Program-made: the position numbers and the translations under genes
Assembly (NCBI RefSeq): GCF_014396165.1
Contig: NZ_CP060715.1
Span: 60,001-92,000 of the forward strand
DNA length: 32,000 nt
DNA from: Erysipelothrix inopinata
GTDB lineage: Bacteria; Bacillota_I; Bacilli_A; Erysipelotrichales; Erysipelotrichaceae
Direction: 5' to 3'
Shown: positions 404 to 11,956 of the stretch, in pieces
Layout: every line of letters begins with the position of its first letter
Position numbering within the stretch: position 1 is the first letter of the stretch
Notes under the pieces: generated by a model
The model's input: only the letters and a program-made list of their open reading frames with translations
What the model was told of the DNA's origin: nothing
Database searches by the model: none

Positions 404-432
404 ATAATATCATTACCTCAACACCCTGTCAA
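404..432 (-). promoter_or_regulatory. rRNA operon sigma-A promoter
   Basis: On the minus strand: -35 TTGACA (432-427), a 17-nt spacer, and -10 TATTAT (409-404). An A/T-rich UP-like tract (AATAAATTTGAAATAAAAGTGAAAAAAG) lies upstream. The 16S 5' end is about 125 nt downstream. Confidence 0.75.
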
Positions 433-495: not shown

Positions 496-1281
496 TTATT
501 CACTAAATGAGTACTCATATTGCATAAACAAATCCATTAAATCTTGTTGATTTAGGTTTAATTTTTCTTCTTCATTGAAATCTTCAACAATATCACCACC
601 ATGAAACATGATAAGTCGATTTCCAAAACGGAGCGCATGATTTAAATTATGGGTAACCATAATGACAGTTAGGTCATCTCTTTCCTTAATCATTTTATCT
701 GTTAGATTCATGATTGCTTCAGAACTTTTTGGATCAAGTGCTGCAGTATGCTCATCCAGCAATAATAAATGAGGATTATTCATTGAAGCCATGAGTAGTG
801 AAAGTGCCTGGCGTTGTCCGCCCGATAGTAATCCAACCTTCACATCCAACTTATCTTCTAATCCCATATTTAATTGAGATAGCATTTCAATATATTTCTT
901 CTCATTCGCACGATGTCCTAACGACTTCAGATTAAACAATCTCCCTTTTAGTTCAGATAATGCTAGGTTCTCTCTAACGGTTAATGATGGGGAGGTTCCC
1001 ATTTGCGGATCTTGGTATACTCTCGATATATTTTGAAATCTCTTAAAGTCAGGTTTTTTAAGAATTGATGTTCCTTCAAAAATCACGTCACCACTATCAC
1101 TTTCAACTTGACCACAAATTACATTTAGGAGTGTTGACTTACCCGAACCATTCGATCCAATGACAGTTACAAAATCGCCCTGTTTCACATTTAAATTTAA
1201 ATCTTCATAAAGAACTGTTTCCGATACGGTTCCAACGTTAAATTTCTTCCCTATATTATGTAGTTGAATTATTCCATCCAT
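496..1281 (-). CDS. ABC transporter ATP-binding protein (COG1101-type partner of the COG2984/COG4120 importer)
   Basis: Contains Walker A GSNGSGKST, signature LSGGQRQ and Walker B LLLLDEHTAALD. RBS GAAGGAA lies 8 nt upstream. The gene abuts the permease gene. Confidence 0.9.
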   Translation of the reverse strand: MDGIIQLHNIGKKFNVGTVSETVLYEDLNLNVKQGDFVTVIGSNGSGKSTLLNVICGQVESDSGDVIFEGTSILKKPDFKRFQNISRVYQDPQMGTSPSLTVRENLALSELKGRLFNLKSLGHRANEKKYIEMLSQLNMGLEDKLDVKVGLLSGGQRQALSLLMASMNNPHLLLLDEHTAALDPKSSEAIMNLTDKMIKERDDLTVIMVTHNLNHALRFGNRLIMFHGGDIVEDFNEEEKLNLNQQDLMDLFMQYEYSFSE

Positions 1282-1283
1282 TT

Positions 1284-2177
1284 TTACTGTTCCTTCATCT
1301 TTCGTCTTGGTAATTTCGTAGATAAATTATTAAGTACGATTGCTCCAACAAATATTATTACAGTCGCAAGTTTCATCATCTTAGGATCCATATTCATACG
1401 TATTGCGATCGCAATAATAAATCTATAGAGAATAGAACCCACGATTACCATAAATGTCATACTGCATTTTTTCTTCCTTAATAATAGGGTTCCTAAAATA
1501 ACTGATGCTAGACCCAGAACAACCATCCCTGTTCCCATGGAAATATCGAATGATTTTCCAACCGAAACTGCTACACCACCCGATAAGGCAACGATGCCAT
1601 TTGAAAGTGCCAATCCAAATATTTTCACTTTTCCAACATCATGACCCAATGATGCTACTAAATTTTCATTGTCTCCAGTTACTTTCAATAAGTAACCAAG
1701 ACGTGTTCTCAAGATGAAATCAATAAAAATTTTCACACCCACCACGAGGAGAACCATTACGATTAGTTGATAGTTATTTACAATAAACGATGGAGCATTC
1801 ATTGCCTCTAACCAATTTGTATCAAAGAGGTTTGCATATTTAAATAAAGCAATGTTTCCTTTACCACCAATAAGTAGATTTATTGAGTATAATCCCGTCA
1901 TTACCAAAATCCCACTTAACAATGCCGTTATCTTAAATTTAACATGGAAAATACCAGTCATCATTCCCGCTAAGACGCCTGCCAAGAGTGATGCAATTAA
2001 CGCAACCCAAGGATTGACACCTTGAATTATCAGTACTGCACTTACGACCGCACCTAATGGAAATGTTCCATCAACTGACAAATCGGGAATATCCAATATT
2101 TTATACGATAACATAACACCCATAGTCAGAATCCCATAGAGAAGACCCTGTATCAATACATCAATTGCAAATGCCAT
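1284..2177 (-). CDS. ABC transporter permease (COG4120-type, multi-pass membrane protein)
   Basis: A 297-aa highly hydrophobic protein. Its start overlaps the binding-protein stop (TAATG overlap at 2175-2179). The operon context is binding protein - permease - ATPase. Confidence 0.85.
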   Translation of the reverse strand: MAFAIDVLIQGLLYGILTMGVMLSYKILDIPDLSVDGTFPLGAVVSAVLIIQGVNPWVALIASLLAGVLAGMMTGIFHVKFKITALLSGILVMTGLYSINLLIGGKGNIALFKYANLFDTNWLEAMNAPSFIVNNYQLIVMVLLVVGVKIFIDFILRTRLGYLLKVTGDNENLVASLGHDVGKVKIFGLALSNGIVALSGGVAVSVGKSFDISMGTGMVVLGLASVILGTLLLRKKKCSMTFMVIVGSILYRFIIAIAIRMNMDPKMMKLATVIIFVGAIVLNNLSTKLPRRKMKEQ

Positions 2178-3130
2178 TATTCTTTCACCATAGCTCTTTC
2201 TAGTACAGAACCAGGAATTTCAATTCCCAATTCTGTTGCGATTTTTTGACTTACCATTAATTCAGTTGACGTTGCAGTCACAACTGGTAAATCCTTGATT
2301 TCTTTTTTATTTACAAGTATATCAACAATCATCTCACCAGCTTGTTTTCCTAAACTCATGTAGCTTACAGAATCACTCGCGAAGATTCCTTGATCAAATT
2401 GCCCTGATTCAGCCATAAATACAGGAATATTTGTTTTTAAACCCGCATCAACCACAAGCCCTGTCGAAGCAGCAACTGTGTTATCATTAACGATAAACAT
2501 TGCGTCAACATTTTGTGCAAGTTGCGAAACAGCCATTGGTAGCTCATTACTTTGAGAAATACCTTTTTCTACAATTTCTAATCCAAGTTCAGAAGCGAAC
2601 GCTTTGATATCTTTAACTTGGTTTGTACTATTGATTTCACCTGTATTGAATGGAATTCCAACCGTTTTCACGTTTGGCGTAATTTCATTAATAAGCTCGA
2701 ATTGTTTTTTAAGTGGTGGCATATCGCTCACACCCGTAACATTTCCTTCAGGCTGATTTACATTTTCTACAAGTCCCGCTTGCTTTGCATCTGATACTGC
2801 ACTGAATACAATGGGTATTCCAGTTCCCTCCGCTGCATTAACTGCAGCTTGTACCGACGGTGTTGCTACTGCAAATATTAAATCCACTTTGTCATTTACA
2901 AATTGCGATGCAATTTGTTGTGCTGTTGATACATCTTCATTTGCCGTTTTGATAACCACTTCAAAGTCGTCACGTTCCTTTAGTACCGAATTCATACCAT
3001 CAAATGAATCATTTAGCGCTGGATGATCTCCCCACTGAATGACACCCACTTTAAATTTTTCATTTCCTTTAGCTTGGCATCCCGCCAAAATAAACATTGT
3101 AAGTAAAACAATTAATATATTCTTTTTCAT
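2177..3130 (-). CDS. ABC transporter substrate-binding lipoprotein, paralog 1 (ABC_sub_bind / COG2984 family, usually annotated putative Trp/Tyr uptake)
   Basis: Lipoprotein signal MKKNILIVLLTMFILAGC. Shows clear paralogy with ORFs 3422-4360 and 7512-8468, sharing motifs KVGV.Q...H..L, IFA..T, NVTGVSD and PVF.AE.G. Confidence 0.85.
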   Translation of the reverse strand: MKKNILIVLLTMFILAGCQAKGNEKFKVGVIQWGDHPALNDSFDGMNSVLKERDDFEVVIKTANEDVSTAQQIASQFVNDKVDLIFAVATPSVQAAVNAAEGTGIPIVFSAVSDAKQAGLVENVNQPEGNVTGVSDMPPLKKQFELINEITPNVKTVGIPFNTGEINSTNQVKDIKAFASELGLEIVEKGISQSNELPMAVSQLAQNVDAMFIVNDNTVAASTGLVVDAGLKTNIPVFMAESGQFDQGIFASDSVSYMSLGKQAGEMIVDILVNKKEIKDLPVVTATSTELMVSQKIATELGIEIPGSVLERAMVKE

Positions 3131-3159
3131 AGTCTCTATCCTTCTCTTCTATATTCAAC

Positions 3160-3184
3160 AAAAAAGCCGTGTATCTACACGGCC
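3160..3184 (-). terminator. attenuator terminator of leader 1, directly upstream of the paralog-1 RBS
   Basis: The RNA is GGCCGUGU-AGAU-ACACGGC followed by UUUUUUG. It lies about 30 nt upstream of the ATG at 3130. Confidence 0.8.
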
Positions 3185-3270
3185 AAAATAAACGTTTAGA
3201 AGATTTAGTAATGAGCCTATGTAGATTTTAGTAACACAAAACAGCTAATATCCACTCGGCTATTAACTGA

Positions 3271-3336
3271 TTAACTAAAATAATAATAGTAGCTCCATTG
3301 TTGGGCTTGTGTATTAAGTAATATGTTGTCTTTCAT
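3271..3336 (-). CDS. candidate leader peptide L1, MKDNILLNTQAQQWSYYYYFS (21 aa), Tyr-rich regulatory codon run
   Basis: Hand translation of the minus strand gives ATG AAA GAC AAC ATA TTA CTT AAT ACA CAA GCC CAA CAA TGG AGC TAC TAT TAT TAT TTT AGT TAA. An SD-like AAGGAAAGG..GGUG lies upstream. The ORF sits between the promoter at 3361-3389 and the terminator at 3160-3184. Confidence 0.6.
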   Translation of the reverse strand: MKDNILLNTQAQQWSYYYYFS

Positions 3337-3360
3337 ATGAAGCACCAACCTTTCCTTGAT

Positions 3361-3389
3361 AGAATAACAGACATTTTCATAGTTATCAA
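3361..3389 (-). promoter_or_regulatory. sigma-A promoter of leader 1 / paralog-1 operon
   Basis: -35 TTGATA (3389-3384), 17-nt spacer, -10 TATTCT (3366-3361) on the minus strand. Confidence 0.55.
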
Positions 3390-3421
3390 TAGTTTTACAT
3401 AAATTTTTCATTTCTTTTTCA

Positions 3422-4360
3422 CTATTCAAGATATTCTTTCAAATCTTCAGGAATTTCAAGTCCGTATGTTTTAGTCATCTTCTCATTAATCCGAATGCGT
3501 GTAGTTTTTGCTTTTTCAACGGGTATTTCAGAAGGTTTCCGTTGTTTGTTTAAAATGTCAAAGATCATATTTCCTGCTTGGTTTCCAAGTTCTGTATAGC
3601 TTATCGAGACAGTAGCGAGAACTCCTTCATCAAATTGTCCATCTTCCGATGCAAATACCGGAACTTGATTAGAACTTGCTTGATCCACAATCAATGAGGT
3701 ATTACTAACGTTCAAGTCATCTGTAATTAAATACATGGCATCTACCTTTTTCAAAAGATTGGGAAGTCCCAGTGCAAGTTCTTGCCCATTGGTTACACCC
3801 ATACTTTCAACATCAAGTCCCAAGTGTTTTGCTTCGGATTCCAGCAGCACTTTTTGAAACTCACCATTGCTGTCACCCGTTCGATAAACCAATCCAACCC
3901 TTTTACTATCTGGCATTATTTTTTTCATCAATTCCAGTTGTTGTGCTACTGGAGCTCTATCAGTTACCCCCGTTATCTTATCAGTTGGATGTTCCATATC
4001 ATCAACAAGTCCTGCTGCCACTGGGTCGGTTACCGCAATAAATACAACCGGTATTGATCCATCAAATACATTAAGTGCCATTTGTGCGGATTGTGTCGTA
4101 ATCGCATAGATAACATCTACACCCTCATCTTTTAGTGCTTGAGCATTTATCATAATGTTCGCTGGATCTGATTGGGCATTTTTCAATACTATTTCAACAT
4201 TTTCCTTTTCAAGAACCTGAGCCATACCGGCGTACGAATCATTCAGCGATGCATAATCCCCAAACTGAAGCACGCCTACTTTATATTCTGCAGAAGACTT
4301 CGAGCTGCATCCCGTTAACACCAATAAAACAATTAATAATAAACTTAATCTCTTTCGCAT
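3422..4360 (-). CDS. ABC transporter substrate-binding lipoprotein, paralog 2 (orphan, no adjacent permease of its own)
   Basis: Start moved to the ATG at 4360 (MRKRLSLLLIVLLVLTGC), which follows RBS GGAGGAG. The track start at 4375 lies in the terminator U-tract. Lipobox LTGC is present, and the protein is paralogous to 2177-3130. Confidence 0.85.
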   Translation of the reverse strand: MRKRLSLLLIVLLVLTGCSSKSSAEYKVGVLQFGDYASLNDSYAGMAQVLEKENVEIVLKNAQSDPANIMINAQALKDEGVDVIYAITTQSAQMALNVFDGSIPVVFIAVTDPVAAGLVDDMEHPTDKITGVTDRAPVAQQLELMKKIMPDSKRVGLVYRTGDSNGEFQKVLLESEAKHLGLDVESMGVTNGQELALGLPNLLKKVDAMYLITDDLNVSNTSLIVDQASSNQVPVFASEDGQFDEGVLATVSISYTELGNQAGNMIFDILNKQRKPSEIPVEKAKTTRIRINEKMTKTYGLEIPEDLKEYLE

Positions 4361-4375
4361 AACCTGCTCCTCCAT

Positions 4376-4402
4376 AAAAAAAGGATCGTGTGTCCACGAT
4401 CC
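4376..4402 (-). terminator. attenuator terminator of leader 2
   Basis: The RNA is GGAUCGUG-GACA-CACGAUCC followed by UUUUUUA. It lies immediately 5' of the GGAGGAG RBS of paralog 2. Confidence 0.85.
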
Positions 4403-4471
4403 TCAATGTAATATCAATAACATTTGATGTGCCCTACGACGAAAAGGGCGGCAATAACTTGCTTCCCTTGA

Positions 4472-4510
4472 TTAACTTCGTCTGTTGCTCCATCGTTTAT
4501 TTATCATCAT
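4472..4510 (-). CDS. candidate leader peptide L2, MMINKRWSNRRS (12 aa)
   Basis: Hand translation gives ATG ATG ATA AAT AAA CGA TGG AGC AAC AGA CGA AGT TAA. SD AAGAGG lies 8 nt upstream. It shares TGG AGC and the AGT TAA TCA ending with L1. Confidence 0.45.
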   Translation of the reverse strand: MMINKRWSNRRS

Positions 4511-4582
4511 TGTTATTACCTCTTTTAACTAAGATATCACAGTTGATAATTAAAATCTATAGTTTCTGTAAAATATTGTTAG

Positions 4583-5125
4583 TTATTTCATTTCTTTCAT
4601 TGTTTTTTCATGTTTTCGAATCTTCTTAATTGCCCAATCATAATGACTTGCAGTAGATGAAACGCAGTAGCTACCTAAAGTGGTGCCTCCTGTCCATTTG
4701 AACACACCCTTGGAAAATAACTCATCATTAGAGAATGTATCAATCATTGCCATTACTTTTTCGTGACTCTCTTTTAGAAGTGCATTGGCTTCTTCGTATG
4801 AAGTATCCTGGTGTTTAGCAATGAACGCTTCATTCATCGCACCATAAGTTTTCCAATTATATGGTGCAGGCAAGAAAGGTGTTTCAACTCCTGCAACATT
4901 TTGATCCACCCAGTTTAGTAATAACTGATGCCACTCGTAGAGATGAATGAGTACATCTTTAATATTTTTATCTCTTTTCCAATGTGCTTCCTTGTATTTA
5001 TCCCCTTCAAACTGAAAGTCTGCTTTTAGATCTTCATCATTTAACTTATTGAGTAAGTTATATAGTTTTTCAAAATTATCATTACTTTGCTCTATTAAAT
5101 CTTTCTTAGTTGTTGGTCTTGCCAT
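4583..5125 (-). CDS. ClbS/DfsB-family (DUF1706) four-helix-bundle protein
   Basis: A 180-aa protein. The N-terminal MARPTTKKDLIEQSNDNFEKL and the FSNDELF motif resemble my recollection of E. coli ClbS (MAVPSSKEELIKAINSNF ... FSNDELY). Confidence 0.65.
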   Translation of the reverse strand: MARPTTKKDLIEQSNDNFEKLYNLLNKLNDEDLKADFQFEGDKYKEAHWKRDKNIKDVLIHLYEWHQLLLNWVDQNVAGVETPFLPAPYNWKTYGAMNEAFIAKHQDTSYEEANALLKESHEKVMAMIDTFSNDELFSKGVFKWTGGTTLGSYCVSSTASHYDWAIKKIRKHEKTMKEMK

Positions 5126-5129
5126 AATA

Positions 5130-5939
5130 TTACTCCTTTTCTGTAATTATATATCCTGCTTCAGTTATCCAATCATTCGCATTTTCACTTTGAGCTGGTG
5201 AGACAATCGGAATGTTAACCATAACTCCCGACAGTTCCAGTCCATGATGTTCTGCCCATCCAGCCAAAACTTCACACACCTGATTCATTTGATTATAGTC
5301 ACCCGCAAACACAGTGGATACCATTTTAAATGACGGTTCACATTGATATACGTCTTCACTCAGTCTCGACTTAGATATATCTATGGATATTTGAACTTCG
5401 ATATCTATTTGTTCTAATTTATATTCTTTATCATGATAAATTGTCATACACTGATACGGATCTGAAAATATAACGGAATTATCAGTTGTTTTTTCATAGA
5501 GCTCATCCCATAGAGATGCTTCACCGTAATAATCTGTAACATTTTTACGAACACTTATTACGTTTCTAGCTGGTATCTCTTTAACACTAACATGATACTT
5601 TTCAAAGGATTTCTTTTCGTAAGACATTGAATTCAACAATTGCAGTTTGGCTTCCATTTCTATGATATCTTCCTGCAACTTATTTCGCCGCGACTCAAGT
5701 TTATTTTCAACAAACCCTTGATCATGACTTGAACTAATTTCCTTTATTTCTGCCAAAGAGAAACCAACTTCTTGAAGAACCTTAATTCTATTTAAATCCT
5801 TTATCTGATGACTACTATAATATCGGTATCCTGTAAGTTCGTCATGCTTATAAGGTAAAAACAATCCTAGATCTTCATAATGATGAAGTGTTCGGATCGT
5901 CGTATTCGTAATTTTTGAGAAAGCACCAATCCGAAACAT
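5130..5939 (-). CDS. MerR-family transcriptional regulator with C-terminal GyrI-like effector domain (BmrR-like)
   Basis: N-terminal MerR HTH (FRIGAFSKITNTTIRTLHHYEDLGLF...GYRYY), a coiled-coil linker, and a C-terminal domain of about 150 aa that looks GyrI-like. Confidence 0.85.
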   Translation of the reverse strand: MFRIGAFSKITNTTIRTLHHYEDLGLFLPYKHDELTGYRYYSSHQIKDLNRIKVLQEVGFSLAEIKEISSSHDQGFVENKLESRRNKLQEDIIEMEAKLQLLNSMSYEKKSFEKYHVSVKEIPARNVISVRKNVTDYYGEASLWDELYEKTTDNSVIFSDPYQCMTIYHDKEYKLEQIDIEVQISIDISKSRLSEDVYQCEPSFKMVSTVFAGDYNQMNQVCEVLAGWAEHHGLELSGVMVNIPIVSPAQSENANDWITEAGYIITEKE

Positions 5940-5960
5940 AGACCACCTCGCTATATCTCT

Positions 5961-5991
5961 ATTATAATCTCTAACACTACGTGAGAGTCAA
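5961..5991 (-). promoter_or_regulatory. MerR-type promoter with a 19-bp spacer and an internal imperfect dyad
   Basis: On the minus strand: -35 TTGACT (5991-5986), 19-nt spacer CTCACGTAGTGTTAGAGAT, and -10 TATAAT (5966-5961). The spacer holds the dyad CTCTAACAC-TAC-GTGAGAG (plus-strand reading). Confidence 0.65.
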
Positions 5992-6002
5992 CACCCATCT
6001 CT

Positions 6003-6034
6003 AAAATAAAAAGGCGTCACATTTTGTGATCGCC
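6003..6034 (-). terminator. intrinsic terminator after the uracil permease gene
   Basis: The RNA is GGCGAUCACA-AAA-UGUGACGCC (9 bp with one bulged A) followed by UUUUUAUUUU. Confidence 0.8.
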
Positions 6035-6046
6035 CCTTGCTTATGA

Positions 6047-7342
6047 TTATTTTTTTACAATTAGGTTTAAAATTTGGTTGAGTAAAATTCCGATAATAGC
6101 TGCAAGGCTCATTCCTGACAATGCAACTCCGCTCATTATTTCCACACTTGCACCACCCAACCCAACTACAAGCATGCTTGATACGATAACAAGATTTTTC
6201 ATATCTGCAAGATCAGTATTATCTTTGATTAACACTTTGATTCCGTTTGAAGCAATCAATCCGTATAGGATGATTGTCATTCCCCCAATTACAGCCCAAG
6301 GGATACTTGCTATAAATGCTTGAATCCACCCTAAGAATCCAAGGCAAATCGCAATTACTGCTGCAAGTCCTATTACCCAAACCGAACCTACTCCAGTCAT
6401 TGCAATAACGCCAGTGTTTTCTCCATAGGTAGTATTTGCCGGTCCACCCAATGCAGCCGACACGAAGGTCGCAATCCCATCACCTAATAGTGTTCTATTA
6501 AGTCCTGGATCTTCAAGAAAATCGTTTCCTGTAATTTCACCCAGAACAATATGGTCACCAATGTGTTCCGCAATCGTAACAAGTGCAAGTGGTGCAAAGG
6601 CGATGACAGTTCCAAAATCAAGCTTGTATGTTCCTAACACTTGAAAATTTGGAATTTGAAAGAAACTATAACCGTCAAGAACATGTTTAATATCAACAAG
6701 CCCTGTAAGAACTGCAGTAATGTAACCTACTAAAATAGCAATTAGGAATGGAATTACTTGAATAAACCCTTTTCCTTTAAGCGATACAAGAACTACTGTT
6801 GAGAATGTTACGAGTGCAACAAGTGGCACTTTCCATTCTGCACCCACAACACCTAAATATTTCCCTTGTTCAACAAGGGGTTGGATTCCTCTTAATCCTG
6901 ATTCTACCACCGCATTGGGTGCAAGTGATAATCCAATAATCACAATCATCGGTCCAATGACTACCGGAGGAAGAAGTTTCTTAATCCATCCACTTCCTGT
7001 AAACGAAATAATAATAGCAATTAATACATAGATAAATCCAACAACCATCAGTCCAGTATAAGCACTTTCTGGTCCACCTGTTGCCATGATTGCTGCGGAA
7101 ATACTTGAAATATATGCAAAGCTACTTCCTAAATAAACGGGAGCTTTTGCTTTAGTACAAAGAATATAAATTAATGTTCCTATCCCACTACATACTAAGG
7201 CAACCCCAATATCTAATCCTGTCAATATCGGAACAAGAACTGTTGCTCCAAACATTGCAAATACATGTTGAAAACTTAAAACTAACCATTCAAGTTTTGA
7301 TTTTGGTTTCTCATGAATACCAATACGTAACCCATTCTCCAT
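6047..7342 (-). CDS. pyrP: uracil permease (NCS2 / uracil-xanthine permease family)
   Basis: A 431-aa protein of about 12 TM segments. The N-terminal motif SFQHVFAMFGATVLVP...SGIGTLIY...PVYLGSSFAYI is typical of PyrP/UraA. Confidence 0.85.
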   Translation of the reverse strand: MENGLRIGIHEKPKSKLEWLVLSFQHVFAMFGATVLVPILTGLDIGVALVCSGIGTLIYILCTKAKAPVYLGSSFAYISSISAAIMATGGPESAYTGLMVVGFIYVLIAIIISFTGSGWIKKLLPPVVIGPMIVIIGLSLAPNAVVESGLRGIQPLVEQGKYLGVVGAEWKVPLVALVTFSTVVLVSLKGKGFIQVIPFLIAILVGYITAVLTGLVDIKHVLDGYSFFQIPNFQVLGTYKLDFGTVIAFAPLALVTIAEHIGDHIVLGEITGNDFLEDPGLNRTLLGDGIATFVSAALGGPANTTYGENTGVIAMTGVGSVWVIGLAAVIAICLGFLGWIQAFIASIPWAVIGGMTIILYGLIASNGIKVLIKDNTDLADMKNLVIVSSMLVVGLGGASVEIMSGVALSGMSLAAIIGILLNQILNLIVKK

Positions 7343-7365
7343 ATAACTTCCTCCTGTGCAATCGC

Positions 7366-7393
7366 AAAATAAAAGAGCGCATGTGCGCCCTCT
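7366..7393 (-). terminator. attenuator terminator in the pyrP leader
   Basis: The RNA is AGAGGGCGC-ACAU-GCGCUCUUU followed by UAUUUU. It lies about 25 nt upstream of the pyrP RBS AGGAGGAAG. Confidence 0.8.
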
Positions 7394-7433
7394 AAGGATA
7401 GTTTAAAGAATAAAAACTTATGTCATATTCTTT

Positions 7434-7467
7434 ATCCTTGCCATAGTCTCGCTATGACTTAAAGGAC
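7434..7467 (-). promoter_or_regulatory. candidate PyrR-type binding hairpin (anti-antiterminator), divergent apical loop
   Basis: The RNA is GUCCUUUAAGUCAUAGCGAGACUAUGGCAAGGAU. It has the CCUUUAA ... AAGGA frame of PyrR sites. The apical GUCAUAGCGAGACU replaces the consensus GUCCAGAGAGGCU. Confidence 0.4.
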
Positions 7468-7511
7468 TGCTTGCTAATAATATAGCATAAAACAATTTAA
7501 AACCCAATGCT

Positions 7512-8468
7512 CTATTCAACTATTTTCGCATTCTTATAGTTATTTGTGTCTATATCGAATTTTTCTGCGACTAATTTATTGAGAATTAGCGTGGTTTCAC
7601 GACTTTGATAGACACCAAGCGACTCCGGTTGAACATTCTCGATAAGGATTTTTTCAATCATTTCTCCCGCTTTTTTTCCCAATTGTTCATAACTTAACGA
7701 TTCAGCCGCAAGAATTCCTTCTTTCATTTGGCCATCTTCTGATGCAAAGACAGGAATACTTTGTTTCGTAGCCAGTTCAGTGATTGTCGATGTTGCAGAT
7801 ACGACCATATTATCTGTAATGTTGTAGATTGCATCCACCCGACCTAACATCTGAGTAACTACTGTTGATACATCTTGAATGTTAGAAATTCCCACTACAT
7901 CAAGTTCTACACCAACACTTGGTGCAATTTTTTGTAAAGCATCAATTTGAACTGTAGAATTAATCTCACCCGTATTATAGATTATTCCAACTTTTTTTGC
8001 CTCAGGCAAAATATTTTTGACAACCATTAATTGTTGATCAGCAGGTGCTAAATCACTCACACCCGTAACATTACTTCCAGGATGATTTAAAGAATCAACC
8101 AACTGTGCCTCAACAGGATCGGTTACTGCATTAAAAATCACAGGAATGCTTGTACCTTCTGTAGCATAATATGCAGATTGTGCTGCGTTAGTTCCAATAG
8201 CATAGATTAAATCATACTTGTCCGATACCATACTTTGCGCAATTAAATCCGCATCTGCAACATTTCCTTGAGCATTCTTAACCACAAACTCTGCATCCTT
8301 ACCGTATTTTTCTTGCCAATATTCTTGTGCTCCTCTAACTGCCGCATCAAGTGAGGGATGTTCCGCAATCTGAATCACACCTATCCGATACTTACTTTCG
8401 TTGCTTGCCTGAGCCGTACATCCTGCAAGTAATACCACACTCATCATCATTACTAGTATTTTTTTCAT
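7512..8468 (-). CDS. ABC transporter substrate-binding lipoprotein, paralog 3 (orphan)
   Basis: Start moved to the ATG at 8468 (MKKILVMMMSVVLLAGC), which follows RBS GAAGGAGAG. The longer track ORF runs through the terminator. Lipobox LAGC is present, and the protein is paralogous to the two other binding proteins. Confidence 0.85.
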   Translation of the reverse strand: MKKILVMMMSVVLLAGCTAQASNESKYRIGVIQIAEHPSLDAAVRGAQEYWQEKYGKDAEFVVKNAQGNVADADLIAQSMVSDKYDLIYAIGTNAAQSAYYATEGTSIPVIFNAVTDPVEAQLVDSLNHPGSNVTGVSDLAPADQQLMVVKNILPEAKKVGIIYNTGEINSTVQIDALQKIAPSVGVELDVVGISNIQDVSTVVTQMLGRVDAIYNITDNMVVSATSTITELATKQSIPVFASEDGQMKEGILAAESLSYEQLGKKAGEMIEKILIENVQPESLGVYQSRETTLILNKLVAEKFDIDTNNYKNAKIVE

Positions 8469-8488
8469 AGTCTCTCCTTCTCTCAAAT

Positions 8489-8510
8489 AAAAAAGCCACT
8501 CAATGTGGCT
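8489..8510 (-). terminator. attenuator terminator of leader 3
   Basis: The RNA is AGCCAC-AUUGA-GUGGCU followed by UUUUUUAUUU. It lies about 20 nt upstream of the ATG at 8468. Confidence 0.8.
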
Positions 8511-8582
8511 GATTGATTTAAGAAAGGAAGCCACATTGATTTAACCAAAGACAAAAGGTCAATATCAACGGGCGACATTAAC

Positions 8583-8636
8583 CTAGTTTCTAAAGATAAA
8601 AAAGAAGCTTAATTGCATTTGAATAGTCTGTATCAT
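8583..8636 (-). CDS. candidate leader peptide L3, MIQTIQMQLSFFFIFRN (17 aa), Phe-rich regulatory codon run
   Basis: Hand translation gives ATG ATA CAG ACT ATT CAA ATG CAA TTA AGC TTC TTT TTT ATC TTT AGA AAC TAG. SD AAGGAAGG lies 8 nt upstream, about 15 nt downstream of the -10 box. Confidence 0.65.
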   Translation of the reverse strand: MIQTIQMQLSFFFIFRN

Positions 8637-8658
8637 AATCCAAACCTTCCTTGAGACT

Positions 8659-8687
8659 ATAATATCATCCCTTACATTTGTTTGCAA
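8659..8687 (-). promoter_or_regulatory. sigma-A promoter of leader 3 / paralog 3
   Basis: -35 TTGCAA (8687-8682), 17-nt spacer, -10 TATTAT (8664-8659) preceded by TGA, which gives an extended -10-like context. Confidence 0.6.
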
Positions 8688-8757
8688 TACTTTTCATTAT
8701 CTATGTAAACATGTTTCATTTAGTGATATAATAGGCGGAGAAAAGGAGATACTAAAT

Positions 8758-10509
8758 ATGTATACTTGGTCTTTAGATGAACTCTATAAAGGATACGATG
8801 AATCCTTCGATACAGATGTAAAAAAAGTATCAGAAATTATCACATCACTTAATCAACAAGCACTTAACTTAAACAACAAAGAAGATTTAATTGCTTTTAT
8901 GAAACTGGATATTGAATTCAACAATCTTGCTCAATCACTCGTTAGCTTCGTAAGCTTAAATTTAGCTACCAATGCTACCGATACCATTAGCAATCAAAAA
9001 TATAGTCAATTGATGCCTATGTTTAACGAGGCTACTAAAGCATATGCTTATTTTAAAAAGTTCTTAGCAGAGAATAAAGATAACTTTGATGAATGGGTTC
9101 TCGAAGATGACTTCCTTAAAGAACATGAATTCATTCTTCGTGAAATCATCAGTAACAGTCAATATAACCTAAATGAGGATGTGGAAGACGTTATTGCAAA
9201 AATGAAACTTAACGCATCCTCTAACTGGTCAAAATTACAAGGATACCTTGGATCAATGGCTACCATTGAATATGATGGTAAAACTCATACTCTTTCCTCA
9301 ATTCGTAATCTTGCCTATTCACATGATGCGAAAACACGTAAAGAAGCATACGAAAAAGAACTCGAACTTTATACTAAGATTGAAGATGCCATTGCATTTG
9401 CATTGAATAGTATTAAAGGAGAAGTTAATACTCTTTCTGCACTTCGTGGATATGAAAACGCTCTTGAACAAACACTTATCGCATCACGTATGTCAAAAGA
9501 AACATTGGATGCATTGATGGGAGCAATCGAGTCATACCTTCCTACATTTAGAAAATACCTTAACCATAAGGCTGAACTTCTTGGACACACCAACGGACTT
9601 CCTTGGTATGATCTTTTCGCACCATTTGAAACAAGCAATCCTAAAGAATATACAGTTGAAGATTCTCGCGAGTTCATTTTAGATAGTTTTGGACACTTCT
9701 CAGATGACTTGCAAGAAATGGCACGTAAAGCCTACGATGATCGTTGGATTGATTTCTTACCTCGTGAGGGAAAACGTGATGGAGCATTCTGTTCAAATCA
9801 ACCACAAATCAAACAAAGCCGTGTTCTTGCAAACTTTGATGGTTCAATTTCTGATATCGTTACGATAGCTCATGAATTAGGACACGCATACCACGGAATG
9901 ATGATTGAGGACTTATCAATCTTAAATACAAACTATACAATGCCTGTTGCAGAAACTGCATCAACATTCTGTGAAAATATCGTCTTCAATGCTGCTCTTA
10001 AAACTGCAAGTGATGAAGAAAAACTTGTCTTAATTGAAAACTCAATTTCTGACTTAACTCAAATCACGGTTGATATCATGTCACGCTACAAGTTTGAAAG
10101 CGAAGTCTTTGAGAGACGTCAAACTGAGTTCTTATTTGCAGCTGATTTAAAAGAAATCATGTTGCAAGCACAACGTGATACATACGGTGAAGGCTTAGAT
10201 CCTGAATTCTTACATCCTTATATGTGGGCTTGCAAGGGTCACTACTATAGTGGTGGACTCAGTTACTATAACTTCCCTTATGCATTTGGTGGTTTATTCG
10301 CGCTTGGTCTTTATGCACAATTCGAAAATGAAGGGGCATCATTTGTCCCTAAATATCAAGCACTTCTCAAAGCTACAACAACCGCATCTTGTGAAGATGT
10401 AGCCATGATGGCTGGAATTGATGTTACTCAAGAAGCATTCTGGAAATCAAGTCTCGATGTTGTTGCAAAACGAATCGACGATTTCATTGCATTAACACCT
10501 ATTAAATAA
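8758..10509 (+). CDS. pepF: M3-family oligoendopeptidase F
   Basis: A 583-aa protein with zinc motif HELGHAYH and overall PepF-like architecture. RBS AAGGAGA is upstream. Confidence 0.85.
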   Translation: MYTWSLDELYKGYDESFDTDVKKVSEIITSLNQQALNLNNKEDLIAFMKLDIEFNNLAQSLVSFVSLNLATNATDTISNQKYSQLMPMFNEATKAYAYFKKFLAENKDNFDEWVLEDDFLKEHEFILREIISNSQYNLNEDVEDVIAKMKLNASSNWSKLQGYLGSMATIEYDGKTHTLSSIRNLAYSHDAKTRKEAYEKELELYTKIEDAIAFALNSIKGEVNTLSALRGYENALEQTLIASRMSKETLDALMGAIESYLPTFRKYLNHKAELLGHTNGLPWYDLFAPFETSNPKEYTVEDSREFILDSFGHFSDDLQEMARKAYDDRWIDFLPREGKRDGAFCSNQPQIKQSRVLANFDGSISDIVTIAHELGHAYHGMMIEDLSILNTNYTMPVAETASTFCENIVFNAALKTASDEEKLVLIENSISDLTQITVDIMSRYKFESEVFERRQTEFLFAADLKEIMLQAQRDTYGEGLDPEFLHPYMWACKGHYYSGGLSYYNFPYAFGGLFALGLYAQFENEGASFVPKYQALLKATTTASCEDVAMMAGIDVTQEAFWKSSLDVVAKRIDDFIALTPIK

Positions 10510-11363: not shown

Positions 11364-11463
11364 AAATTTACACTCTCTTTTCTCTATCTATAGTTATATC
11401 ATGAATTGTAACTTTTGGGGCGAAGTTCCAGAAATTATAAAAGAAAAGATCTCTTTCGAGATC

Positions 11464-11769
11464 TTAAGAAACAAAATAAGTATGTTCTGTTTTCCATTCA
11501 ATAACTTTGATATGGACCCAGAAGCTGTAGATTCCAAATGTTATCATCGTTAAGAACCACCATAGAATCCAATGAGTGAAAAGACTTCCTGCACTCCCAT
11601 TAAACATAAGTCGCTTACCTTCAATAACACTATGTTCTATTTCCCATCGATAGGAACGAACAATAGCCCATGGTGTACCCAAACCTACGGTAAAGATAAC
11701 GATTAATACATTTGTAATTTGAAGACCGATGTACGACCCTAAACCGCCATCGAAATATGATTGTTTCAT
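11464..11769 (-). CDS. small membrane protein resembling a single DUF898 (YjgN-like) repeat
   Basis: A 101-aa protein with two hydrophobic helices, including the segments GLGTPWA and TFGIYSFW. The family call is from memory and is uncertain. Confidence 0.45.
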   Translation of the reverse strand: MKQSYFDGGLGSYIGLQITNVLIVIFTVGLGTPWAIVRSYRWEIEHSVIEGKRLMFNGSAGSLFTHWILWWFLTMITFGIYSFWVHIKVIEWKTEHTYFVS

Positions 11770-11926
11770 AATCTATTCTCCTTCTTTTATATAAAGTTTA
11801 AAAGCACTTATTTAAAAGTGCTTAGGCATCATTAATTAAACATGTGGAAGATGTTGCCCATAAAAATAATACCATACTTTCTCCAATTTGTATCTTACAT
11901 TGTTGTAATAATACACTAACACAACG

Positions 11927-11956
11927 AAAAAGACGACATTCTGGGAAAATGCCGTC
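11927..11956 (-). terminator. intrinsic terminator downstream of the LPXTG glycosidase gene
   Basis: The RNA is GACGGCAUU-UUCCCAG-AAUGUCGUC (9 bp with one G-U) followed by UUUUUCGUU. Confidence 0.7.

Follow-up and report, generated by a model that had tools for sequence, protein, structure and literature searches.

A 32,000-nt stretch of Erysipelothrix inopinata DNA (NZ_CP060715.1, positions 60,001-92,000; hereafter the window) carries on its minus strand a locus that probably encodes one aromatic amino-acid ATP-binding cassette (ABC) importer of the TrpX/CD0873 family, made up of a single permease, a single ATPase and three receptor lipoproteins that are paralogs (P1, P2 and P3). Taking importer and regulation jointly, we consider it likely that each receptor gene is read through a leader of its own, whose translated mini-open reading frame (mini-ORF) would report the charging of one aromatic tRNA: Tyr in leader L1, Trp in L2 and Phe in L3. 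The core of this reading, i.e. a single importer with three receptors, each behind a leader-peptide attenuator with a different amino acid, had been proposed in a first-pass annotation of the window and is supported by the computational tests described here. The importer genes are as follows:

496-1281, minus strand: ABC ATPase (PF00005)
1284-2177, minus strand: permease (PF02653), its start overlapping the P1 stop codon
2177-3130, minus strand: binding-protein paralog P1, lipoprotein of the Tyr-leader clade (PF04392)
3422-4360, minus strand: binding-protein paralog P2, lipoprotein of the Trp-leader clade (PF04392), with the pocket signature most unlike P1 and P3
7512-8468, minus strand: binding-protein paralog P3, lipoprotein of the Phe-leader clade (PF04392)

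All three receptors match PF04392 (ABC_sub_bind) with E values of 1e-59 to 1e-68 (201-231 bits, cut-off 25.9). The domain spans their full length, the operon also holds the PF02653 permease and the ABC ATPase, and the paralogs are 38-40% identical in pairwise comparison. The starts of P2 and P3 are those preceded by a Shine-Dalgarno (SD) sequence, 4360 and 8468, as had been assumed; the longer ORFs (4375, 8534) engulf the ribosome-binding site (RBS) and the terminator.

Leader peptides and receptor clades

Reading of the sequence, together with a scan for terminator-like sites, confirmed that each receptor gene lies behind an SD-preceded mini-ORF and an intrinsic terminator. The leader features are:

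3336..3271, minus strand: L1 mini-ORF MKDNILLNTQAQQWSYYYYFS (Tyr leader), read from the sequence
3361..3389, minus strand: L1 promoter-like site TTGATA-17-TATTCT, with TG, 33 nt past the P2 stop codon (scan)
3165..3184, minus strand: L1 intrinsic terminator, just 5' of the P1 RBS (terminator-like scan)
4510..4472, minus strand: L2 mini-ORF MMINKRWSNRRS (Trp leader), with the SD AAAGAGGT ahead of it, read from the sequence
4531..4539, minus strand: L2 extended -10-like element TG-a-TATCTT, seen by eye
4381..4404, minus strand: L2 intrinsic terminator, 10 bp followed by U7, just 5' of the P2 RBS (terminator-like scan)
8636..8583, minus strand: L3 mini-ORF MIQTIQMQLSFFFIFRN (Phe leader), with the SD-like AAGGAAGG ahead of it, read from the sequence
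8659..8687, minus strand: L3 promoter-like site TTGCAA-17-TATTAT, with TG (scan)
8494..8510, minus strand: L3 intrinsic terminator, U-tract to about 8486, just 5' of the P3 RBS (terminator-like scan)

The three mini-ORFs read exactly as first noted, and a purine-rich SD-like block stands ahead of each. A promoter had been claimed for every leader; those of L1 and L3 were recovered in the scan, whereas that of L2 was not called. In agreement with the first-pass annotation, the scan found no terminator-like site between the P2 stop (3422) and the L1 promoter. Of 92 ATG mini-ORFs in the window that have 6-30 codons and an SD ahead of them, only four end in an aromatic-rich tail; L1 and L3 have the two richest such tails, and are the only two then followed by a T-run. 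As regulatory codons, L1 has three to four Tyr (plus Phe) and L3 three to five Phe and no Tyr, while the signal of L2 is weaker, namely one invariant Trp. The codon run ascribed to every leader therefore holds for L1 and L3 but not for L2, which has a single conserved Trp codon. No further attenuators were found in the rest of the window, where the gap at 11364-11930 is an ordinary ORF of about 100 aa.

An SD-like block, GAAAGGTTGG(G), is almost invariant ahead of the L1- and L3-type mini-ORFs (3341-3356 in the window, with the same motif at 8641-8652). Its distance to the ATG is 8-14 nt, beyond plain SD spacing in most L1-type leaders. In the minimum-energy fold of the window L1, the block at 3341-3356 pairs with the GCCCAACAA (A-Q-Q) codons at 3298-3306, and this predicted pairing suggests an extra layer of control on mini-ORF initiation.

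About 12 distinct related lineages were assembled by genome, metagenome and protein-based retrieval, comprising E. aquatica, E. anatis, Erysipelothrix sp. HDW6C, several metagenome-assembled genomes (MAGs) and several metagenome contigs. Their binding proteins are 44-61% identical to those of the window. The array P3-P2-P1-permease-ATPase is contiguous in most of the related loci, each of which has only one permease. In about 12 lineages, a mini-ORF, an SD, a terminator and an own promoter are kept upstream of every paralog, and an intrinsic terminator separates mini-ORF and receptor gene in every leader examined. Some orthologous L2 leaders have clearer promoters, e.g. TTGCAA-17-TATAAT in related locus L006, and own promoters also lie upstream of the L3 orthologs.

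Alignment of the orthologous leaders showed that frame, SD, start and codon identity are kept. The P1-ortholog leader peptides end in ..QMSNYYYFR, ..GSFYYFYYR(K), ..QQWSFYYFS, ..VGSFYYYS or ..QQWSYYYYFS, and those of the P3 orthologs in ..SFFFFFR, ..SFFFFFT, ..SFFFFSFI, ..STFFNFR or ..SFFFFNFK. The P2 orthologs have MYMKRWSNKRIEY, MTIIRRWSNNRIK, MIKTTTWSNSRIK, MALKRWSDNRI, MISRRWSDNLS, MMHNQRWSNKRIES, MMSFKRWSNNRIK and MMIISQTWSSSIIE. Variation within the codon runs is synonymous only (TAC/TAT, TTC/TTT, CGN/AGA): all six variable sites of the GSFYYFYYR group are synonymous, as are the Phe codon changes of the L3 type. Trp is invariant in nine distinct orthologous L2 lineages, and the Ser that follows it is kept across codon families (AGC, AGT, TCA). 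Since the runs vary only synonymously, and since this Ser is kept despite a change from AGC to TCA, the mini-ORFs are most probably translated; at the level of sequence comparison, synonymous-only variation is the signature of a translated sequence. Where Trp or Arg had been offered as the signal of L2, Trp is the one conserved; Arg, absent from the leader of related locus L030 and variable elsewhere, was rejected.

The type of leader follows the type of receptor. In a neighbour-joining (NJ) tree of 28 proteins, the receptors behind 11 Tyr leaders, nine Trp leaders and eight Phe leaders fell into three clades with zero exceptions. Jointly, these clades stand apart from the solved Trp- and Tyr-binding relatives, which places the receptor triplication inside this lineage.

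Leader RNA structure and the proposed attenuation mechanism

The L1 and L3 leader types align end to end and have the invariant blocks GTTAAT..GATATTA..TTT in common, and judged by this alignment they are homologous. A duplication of L1 and L2 had been suggested instead, from the codons TGG AGC and the ending AGT TAA TCA. In the window the two leaders do have TGG AGC in common, but orthologous L2 leaders do not keep the AGT TAA TCA ending, and the case for such a duplication is weak; the clearly homologous pair is L1/L3. Likewise, the overlapping alternative hairpins attributed to all three leaders take the form of a covarying chain in L1 and L3, while L2 has no antiterminator above chance. 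The chain would consist of five mutually exclusive elements, i.e. segment 0, hairpin A, helix B, helix C and terminator D, with the following positions in the window:

3276..3297, minus strand: L1 segment 0, the W-S-Y.. codons (GGAGC 3292-3296, UUUUAGU 3276-3282), pairing with the antiterminator strand region (minimum-energy fold)
3242..3269, minus strand: L1 hairpin A, starting 2 nt past the stop codon and followed by UUUU (folds)
3223..3253, minus strand: L1 helix B, GGAUAUUAG x CUAAAAUCU (pairing conservation)
3213..3227, minus strand: L1 antiterminator strand AAUCUACAUAGGCUC, pairing with the terminator 5' arm GGCCGUGUAGAU
8557..8583, minus strand: L3 hairpin A, whose first base is the last of the stop codon, followed by UUUU (8584-8556 flagged as terminator-like in the scan)
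8537..8567, minus strand: L3 helix B, excluding A and C, present in the minimum-energy fold of the window L3
8528..8540, minus strand: L3 antiterminator strand AUCAAUGUGGCUU, pairing with the terminator 5' arm and loop (8500-8510)
4426..4494, minus strand: L2 long helix, in which the Trp and following codons (4476-4494) pair with 4426-4445 and enclose a hairpin A (4444-4469) that starts 2 nt past the stop

Helix statistics were drawn from 19 L1/L3-type leaders, with slid positions, non-cognate pairs or shuffles as controls. Hairpin A, which starts 0-6 nt past the stop codon, was 92% paired (slid controls, 23-59%), shows an AU<->GC swap at one pair and was predicted independently by RNAalifold. 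Copies of its motif were sought in the window and in about 300 kb of related loci, and only the L1/L3-type leaders contained it. Helix B, formed by the 3' arm of A and the 5' half of the antiterminator strand, was 81% paired (slid controls, 29-64%). Helix C, between the antiterminator strand and the terminator 5' arm, is present at the same position, 42-54 nt past the stop, in 19 of 19 leaders. Its mean energy was -14.6 kcal/mol for cognate and -9.4 kcal/mol for non-cognate pairs, and its z-score against shuffles ranged from -0.4 to -5.4 (below -2 in 14 of the 19). In the window, helix C reaches -14.3 kcal/mol in L1 (z = -2.0, P(5' arm paired) 0.97) and -17.0 kcal/mol in L3 (z = -5.4, P(5' arm paired) 0.98). 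The sequences of the helix diverge widely yet still pair, as in AAUCUACAUAGGCU:GGCCGUGUAGAU, AAAUCCGCAAGCUU:AGCUAUGUGGAUU and UUGAUAGGGCGAUUC:AAAUCGCCCUAUCAU.

Segment 0 comprises the codons that immediately precede and open the aromatic run, among them a conserved AGC Ser codon, and its partner is the 3' half of the antiterminator strand. Across the 19 leaders this pairing had a mean of -10.2 kcal/mol for cognate and -7.3 kcal/mol for non-cognate strands, with compensatory variants, e.g. GGAGC:GCUCC, AAUGAGC:GCUCAUU and ACUAAGC:GCUUAGU. The run always ends one to two codons ahead of the stop, with segment 0 located 11-38 nt upstream, a geometry that fits control by a ribosome. An anti-antiterminator thus overlaps the regulatory codons in L1 and L3 (segment 0), and the long helix does so over the S-N-x-R codons of L2.

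The effect of a ribosome was modelled by masking a footprint around the A site, 15 nt on its upstream and 12 nt on its downstream side. For the window L1, P(terminator) was 0.07-0.24 with the mask at the W, S and Y codons, and 0.66-0.70 at F, S and stop. For the window L3, it was 0.00-0.09 at S, F, F, F and I, and 0.89 at the last F, R, N and stop.

In the mechanism that we propose for L1 and L3, a ribosome stalled on the Tyr or Phe codons would cover segment 0 and leave hairpin A intact. The antiterminator strand would then be free to form helix C, and the polymerase would enter the receptor gene. A ribosome at the stop codon would instead mask the 5' arm of A, so that helix B could form while segment 0 re-emerged in the wake of the ribosome; the antiterminator strand would then be sequestered in both its halves, and the terminator would form. 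In the absence of translation, segment 0 and hairpin A would also favour termination. Hairpin A is followed by an invariant U-run in both leaders (3238-3269 in L1 and 8556-8584 in L3, minus strand), and the two together could act as a transcriptional pause that synchronises the polymerase with the leader ribosome.

The genes for permease and ATPase abut P1 and no promoter-like site lies ahead of them. As they sit only downstream of L1 and P1, the capacity of the importer would hinge on read-through of L1, or of L2 and then L1, because the gene order obliges transcripts from the L2 promoter to cross both; P3 would add a receptor only. It may be added that limitation for Phe or Trp alone would raise the amount of a receptor and not of the translocator (permease at 1284-2177, found only behind L1 at 3165-3389), unless basal read-through suffices.

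Several results weigh against the reading of all three leaders as amino-acid-specific attenuators. The promoter assignments are matches to a consensus and nothing more, and such matches are no more frequent in the region than in shuffled sequences. Segment 0 of the window L3 is weak (-4.9 kcal/mol, z = -0.3). Many orthologous L1/L3 leaders showed no switch in equilibrium folding, where the terminator wins in the full-length RNA and the antiterminator in the truncated RNA. In L2, no pairing of the terminator (5' arm, 3' arm or whole) with any upstream segment exceeded chance: cognate pairing had -7.5 kcal/mol and non-cognate -8.6 kcal/mol, the mean z-score against shuffles was +0.5, and ribosome masking, which switches the terminator of the window L1 and L3, left P(terminator) of L2 at 0.75-0.84. 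Finally, the equivalents of Glu263 and Tyr279 of CD0873, a solved relative of the receptors, are Glu and Tyr in P1, P2 and P3 alike, and separate Tyr, Phe and Trp receptors find no support there.

Because equilibrium folding fails in many orthologs, the read-through decision in these leaders would have to be kinetic. Mask folding of the orthologs, with its switch confined to the window L1 and L3, was set aside and weight was put on covariation and on the cognate and non-cognate energies.

A more far-reaching proposal is that one leader scaffold was duplicated together with its receptor gene and had its input re-programmed simply by a change of the codons in the run, with Tyr for L1 and Phe for L3, the pairing of leader and receptor since being fixed across the genus, and that L2 would couple translation to termination outside the classical scheme. 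We put this forward tentatively, as possible rather than probable. If it is true, L1 would be a dedicated tyrosine-sensing leader peptide. The homologous pair may be regarded as a natural codon-swap experiment: L1 and L3 differ mainly in a Tyr versus a Phe run, each stands before a different receptor, and together they show how the specificity of an attenuator evolves.

L2 is only partly explained by the scheme, and is probably a Trp-sensing leader, as suggested by its conserved codon and helix. The conserved part of its long helix was 91% paired (slid controls, 20-68%), with GC->UA and CG->UA changes. The Trp codon and the next four codons would form the 5' strand of this helix, so that a ribosome with Trp in its A site would cover it. 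In five L2 lineages the freed strand can reach the loop and upper stem of the terminator in a pairing of 8-10 bp that has a U.U mismatch at its centre; the best candidate in the window is CACAUC..:GAU(C)GUG, inside a longer interrupted hairpin. L2 might alternatively not be a classical Trp-starvation attenuator at all, and could act by TnaC-like sensing of free Trp, by Rho or pausing, or as a constitutive partial terminator whose mini-ORF has another role. The single conserved Trp codon, the Ser kept at the amino-acid level after it, the missing antiterminator and the inert response to masking favour such a role, as does the GC-based hairpin A, which together with the following UUUU resembles a pause or a weak terminator. 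The distance from Trp to the stop varies, however (5-7 residues), as do the residues past W-S, whereas arrest peptides have fixed spacing. The covarying helix of post-Trp codons lies exactly at the position of a stalled ribosome, its freed strand has the pairing just described, L1 and L3, the sister leaders of L2, are of the classical type, WWW occurs in a distant analogue, and an auxotroph would gain little from inducing an importer with the very substrate that it takes up. We therefore hold a non-classical L2 to be unlikely. If L2 were non-classical, it could work through pausing at the hairpin and U-tract near the stop codon, or through weak pairing into the terminator loop.

Receptor ligands and alternative sensors

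The solved relatives of P1-P3 are CD0873 (6HNI/J/K), SP1069 (3LFT) and VC_1101 (3LKV), with E values of 1e-35 to 1e-46. The family background given in the first-pass annotation was borne out: CD0873 of C. difficile binds Tyr, SP1069 of S. pneumoniae Trp and VC_1101 of V. cholerae Phe (PMC6816091), and S. suis TrpXYZ is under the control of a Trp T-box (PMC9382623). The ligand backbone is bound by residues T108, A127, T129, D152 and N233 of TrpX (PMC9382623). All three clades retain the corresponding Thr, Ala, Thr/Ser and Asp, and P1 and P3 also the Asn, where P2 has Asp, Gly or Ser instead. Each clade has an invariant signature in its pocket segments, i.e. QW..HPAL and FMAE in P1, QFGD[YF]ASL, [RK]TGD.NG and TD[DGS]L in P2 (the last replacing the Asn otherwise conserved in the family), and Q[IL]..HPSL and NITDNM in P3. 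From the leaders and the clade structure we infer that P1, P2 and P3 would be specific for Tyr, Trp and Phe, respectively.

According to the published rule, Glu263 confers specificity for Tyr, and Gln in place of Tyr279 specificity for Trp (CD0873 numbering; PMC6816091). As a ligand test for the present receptors the rule was discarded as uninformative, all three being Glu/Tyr, and it does not appear transferable to the P1-P3 clade. Like CD0873, SP1069 and VC_1101, P1-P3 belong to the same Pfam family and are lipoprotein receptors of an ABC importer; they differ in forming a clade of their own, in defying the two-residue rule and, for P2, in lacking the conserved Asn of the family.

The receptors might nevertheless not be separately specific, all of them binding Tyr or a broad range of aromatic amino acids, so that only the regulatory inputs would differ and three starvation signals would feed one importer. 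The Glu and Tyr that define the tyrosine preference of CD0873 are kept in all three (PMC6816091), and the clades arose by duplication inside the lineage, not from Trp- or Tyr-type ancestors. Against this stand the clade-specific invariant signatures in pocket-lining segments, and the genus-wide retention of three paralogs with matched leaders, which is hard to explain without different ligands. Shared specificity thus appears unlikely. With separate specificities, the leaders predict ligands for three uncharacterised receptors of a family that is a vaccine and virulence target in C. difficile and S. suis.

A different kind of sensor was also considered, in which the leaders would be attenuators responding to a metabolite (a riboswitch) or to an RNA-binding protein, with mini-ORFs that are incidental in AT-rich DNA. 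An Rfam scan of the window at gathering score returned only an rRNA fragment and one tRNA, and a sensitive scan of 3000-8900 gave no T-box, riboswitch or leader family; for the related loci the outcome was the same. Among the matches with E <= 10 there was no Rfam leader-peptide family (Trp_leader, Phe_leader, leu/phe leader or others). The closest approach came from L1, which matched the trpB motif RF04312, an orphan riboswitch candidate, below threshold (24.8 bits, with 59 as the gathering score; E = 3.7); in this match L1 aligns to the 3' two-thirds of the motif (CUAAAAU..GGCU..terminator) and the 5' half does not fit. This motif is found mostly ahead of an uncharacterised amino-acid-type ABC transporter and is described as a "strong riboswitch candidate", a classical attenuator not being excluded by the authors (PMC11109978). 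It shares with L1 a hairpin and terminator in 5' untranslated regions of Firmicutes, mostly before such a transporter; L1 differs in its score far below threshold, its unfit 5' half and the lack of orthologous matches. In the sensitive scan no match to RF04312 was obtained in L2, L3 or any orthologous leader, and no bona fide instance was present in the extra loci; membership in the motif was rejected.

Beyond the weak match, the high sequence conservation of hairpins A and B would suit a non-ribosomal sensor, as would the occurrence of a HutP gene and UAG repeats with the same transporter family in other Firmicutes. Against such a sensor stand the frame, start, SD and aromatic codon identity, all kept under purely synonymous variation, and the codon type, which follows the receptor clade perfectly. 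Hairpin A, too, invariably borders on the stop codon, segment 0 invariably extends into the beginning of the run, and no regulator gene recurs beside the locus. We regard a metabolite or protein sensor as quite improbable. T-box riboswitches can be dismissed despite the Trp T-box of the homologous S. suis operon (PMC9382623), since the T-box model (RF00230) matched neither the window nor any related locus, whether at gathering score or at E <= 10, and the leaders are just 130-230 nt long and taken up by the mini-ORF and hairpin chain.

Related systems and surroundings of the locus

Leader-peptide attenuation is classical in proteobacteria. With trpL, pheL and hisL of E. coli, the Erysipelothrix leaders would have in common a translated mini-ORF that lies near the promoter and holds regulatory codons, a set of anti-antiterminator, antiterminator and terminator helices that exclude one another, and a decision made by the position of the ribosome. 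They differ in belonging to a Firmicute (Erysipelotrichia) and in preceding transporter receptor genes rather than biosynthetic operons. Their chain has five elements where the classical one has four segments, and the antiterminator strand would be locked twice, by segment 0 and by helix B; a Tyr-run leader is included, and there is no sequence similarity to Rfam leader families. In the Lactococcus lactis Leu/Phe leader family (Rfam RF01743), one scaffold carries Leu or Phe codons and some copies stand before transport genes. By comparison, the Tyr/Phe swap described here goes 1:1 with receptor paralogs that serve one importer, and it persists across the genus.

Other Firmicute leader peptides are the His leaders of hisS/hisZ in bacilli (PMC2965389) and the Leu-rich ilv attenuator of S. 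aureus (PMC5794164). These and the L. lactis leaders share attenuation in Firmicutes with the present ones, while sequence and structure differ. In the same transporter family, S. suis trpXYZ is controlled by the Trp T-box mentioned above. The paralogous NSS transporters of the Bacillus cereus group have Leu, Trp or Phe T-boxes (PMC2494555). Both resemble the Erysipelothrix system in using uncharged tRNA as the signal, terminator read-through as the output and paralog-specific amino-acid inputs; here, however, the sensor would be a ribosome translating a mini-ORF and not a tRNA bound to the leader RNA. The AroR leader peptide (Phe-Tyr-Phe) of C. glutamicum aroF is reported to respond to Phe and not to Tyr (summarised in PMC11802643). 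It is likewise a mixed-aromatic leader peptide on an aromatic amino-acid function, but it precedes a biosynthetic gene of an actinobacterium, whereas Tyr-rich and Phe-only leaders are separate here.

Searching the literature turned up neither an account of this Erysipelothrix system nor one of a Tyr-run leader. On the computational evidence, the reading of the leaders as a variant form of ribosome-mediated attenuation is well supported. They would add a conserved Firmicute case of amino-acid-specific leader-peptide attenuation to a phylum dominated by T-boxes. The relative E. rhusiopathiae cannot make aromatic amino acids (PMC9769512), and for that reason leader control is probably important for growing in a host or in the environment.

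Beyond Erysipelothrix, a metagenome contig whose closest named relatives are Thermotogota (L019:400-1900, L031:403-4722) carries two adjacent receptor paralogs behind leader ORFs, MRKENLVNKENLNINNWWWRRTLSRGSLFAR and MNNQNMFQNKLNNSFYFYYFWWKALSKDSRCSDME, that contain ..NNWWWRR.. and ..SFYFYYFWW.. and are each followed by a terminator. Alternative structures in these leaders did not resolve by eye. The contig has a third paralog, situated past the ATPase gene (L031:4723), with a promoter and a terminator ahead of it but no mini-ORF. Three loci, one from a Halanaerobium genome and the others from MAGs of Clostridiaceae and of Bacillota, have a HutP-family gene (PF09021) directly upstream of an operon with a single PF04392 receptor, permease and ATPase. 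The intervals between HutP gene and receptor hold UAG triplet repeats (e.g. GUAGUAUGGUAGUAUGGUAGG) and an intrinsic terminator, as follows:

L023:3386-4000: HutP-type locus
L024:2275-3000: HutP-type locus
L007:104-760: HutP-type locus

The UAG repeat recurs at the receptor RBS in these loci. From its sequence, the arrangement looks like protein-mediated antitermination of the same transporter family, and no description of it was found in a literature search. One transporter family thus now appears under T-box, leader-peptide and HutP-type protein control. High-GC Clostridia-like loci have neither the leader-peptide nor the HutP arrangement. In a GC-richer organism, a 335-nt leader with a terminator-like hairpin (GACTACAGGCAATGCCTGTGGTC followed by a T-run) precedes a single PF04392 gene (L026:2665-3000; the same in L027); this leader gave no Rfam match at gathering score and contains no convincing mini-ORF.

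The closest public sequences to the window are Erysipelothrix genomes and MAGs. Between P2 and P3 (4583-7342, minus strand) lie genes for a DUF1706 protein, a MerR/GyrI-like regulator and a xanthine/uracil-type permease, all unrelated to the importer. These three genes are shared only with the near-identical MAG L001, and the receptor genes are in tandem in other relatives. Since the array is contiguous in most relatives, comparison of gene order indicates that this block is an insertion. A strong terminator-like hairpin of 9 bp, five of them GC, is located at 7372-7393 (minus strand), 120 nt past the P3 stop and 30 nt ahead of the start of the xanthine/uracil-type permease. It could terminate the P3 transcript or attenuate the permease gene; the region gave no Rfam match, and the relative L006 has a purine riboswitch at L006:2436-2536.

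The 5' end of the 16S rRNA gene, detected with Rfam at 1-280, is situated directly downstream of the importer operon. Its near-consensus promoter, TTGACA-17-TATTAT, is found at 404-432 (minus strand). The order of importer and then SSU rRNA recurs in related loci L006, L020 and L021, and a peptidase M3 gene on the other flank is also syntenic.

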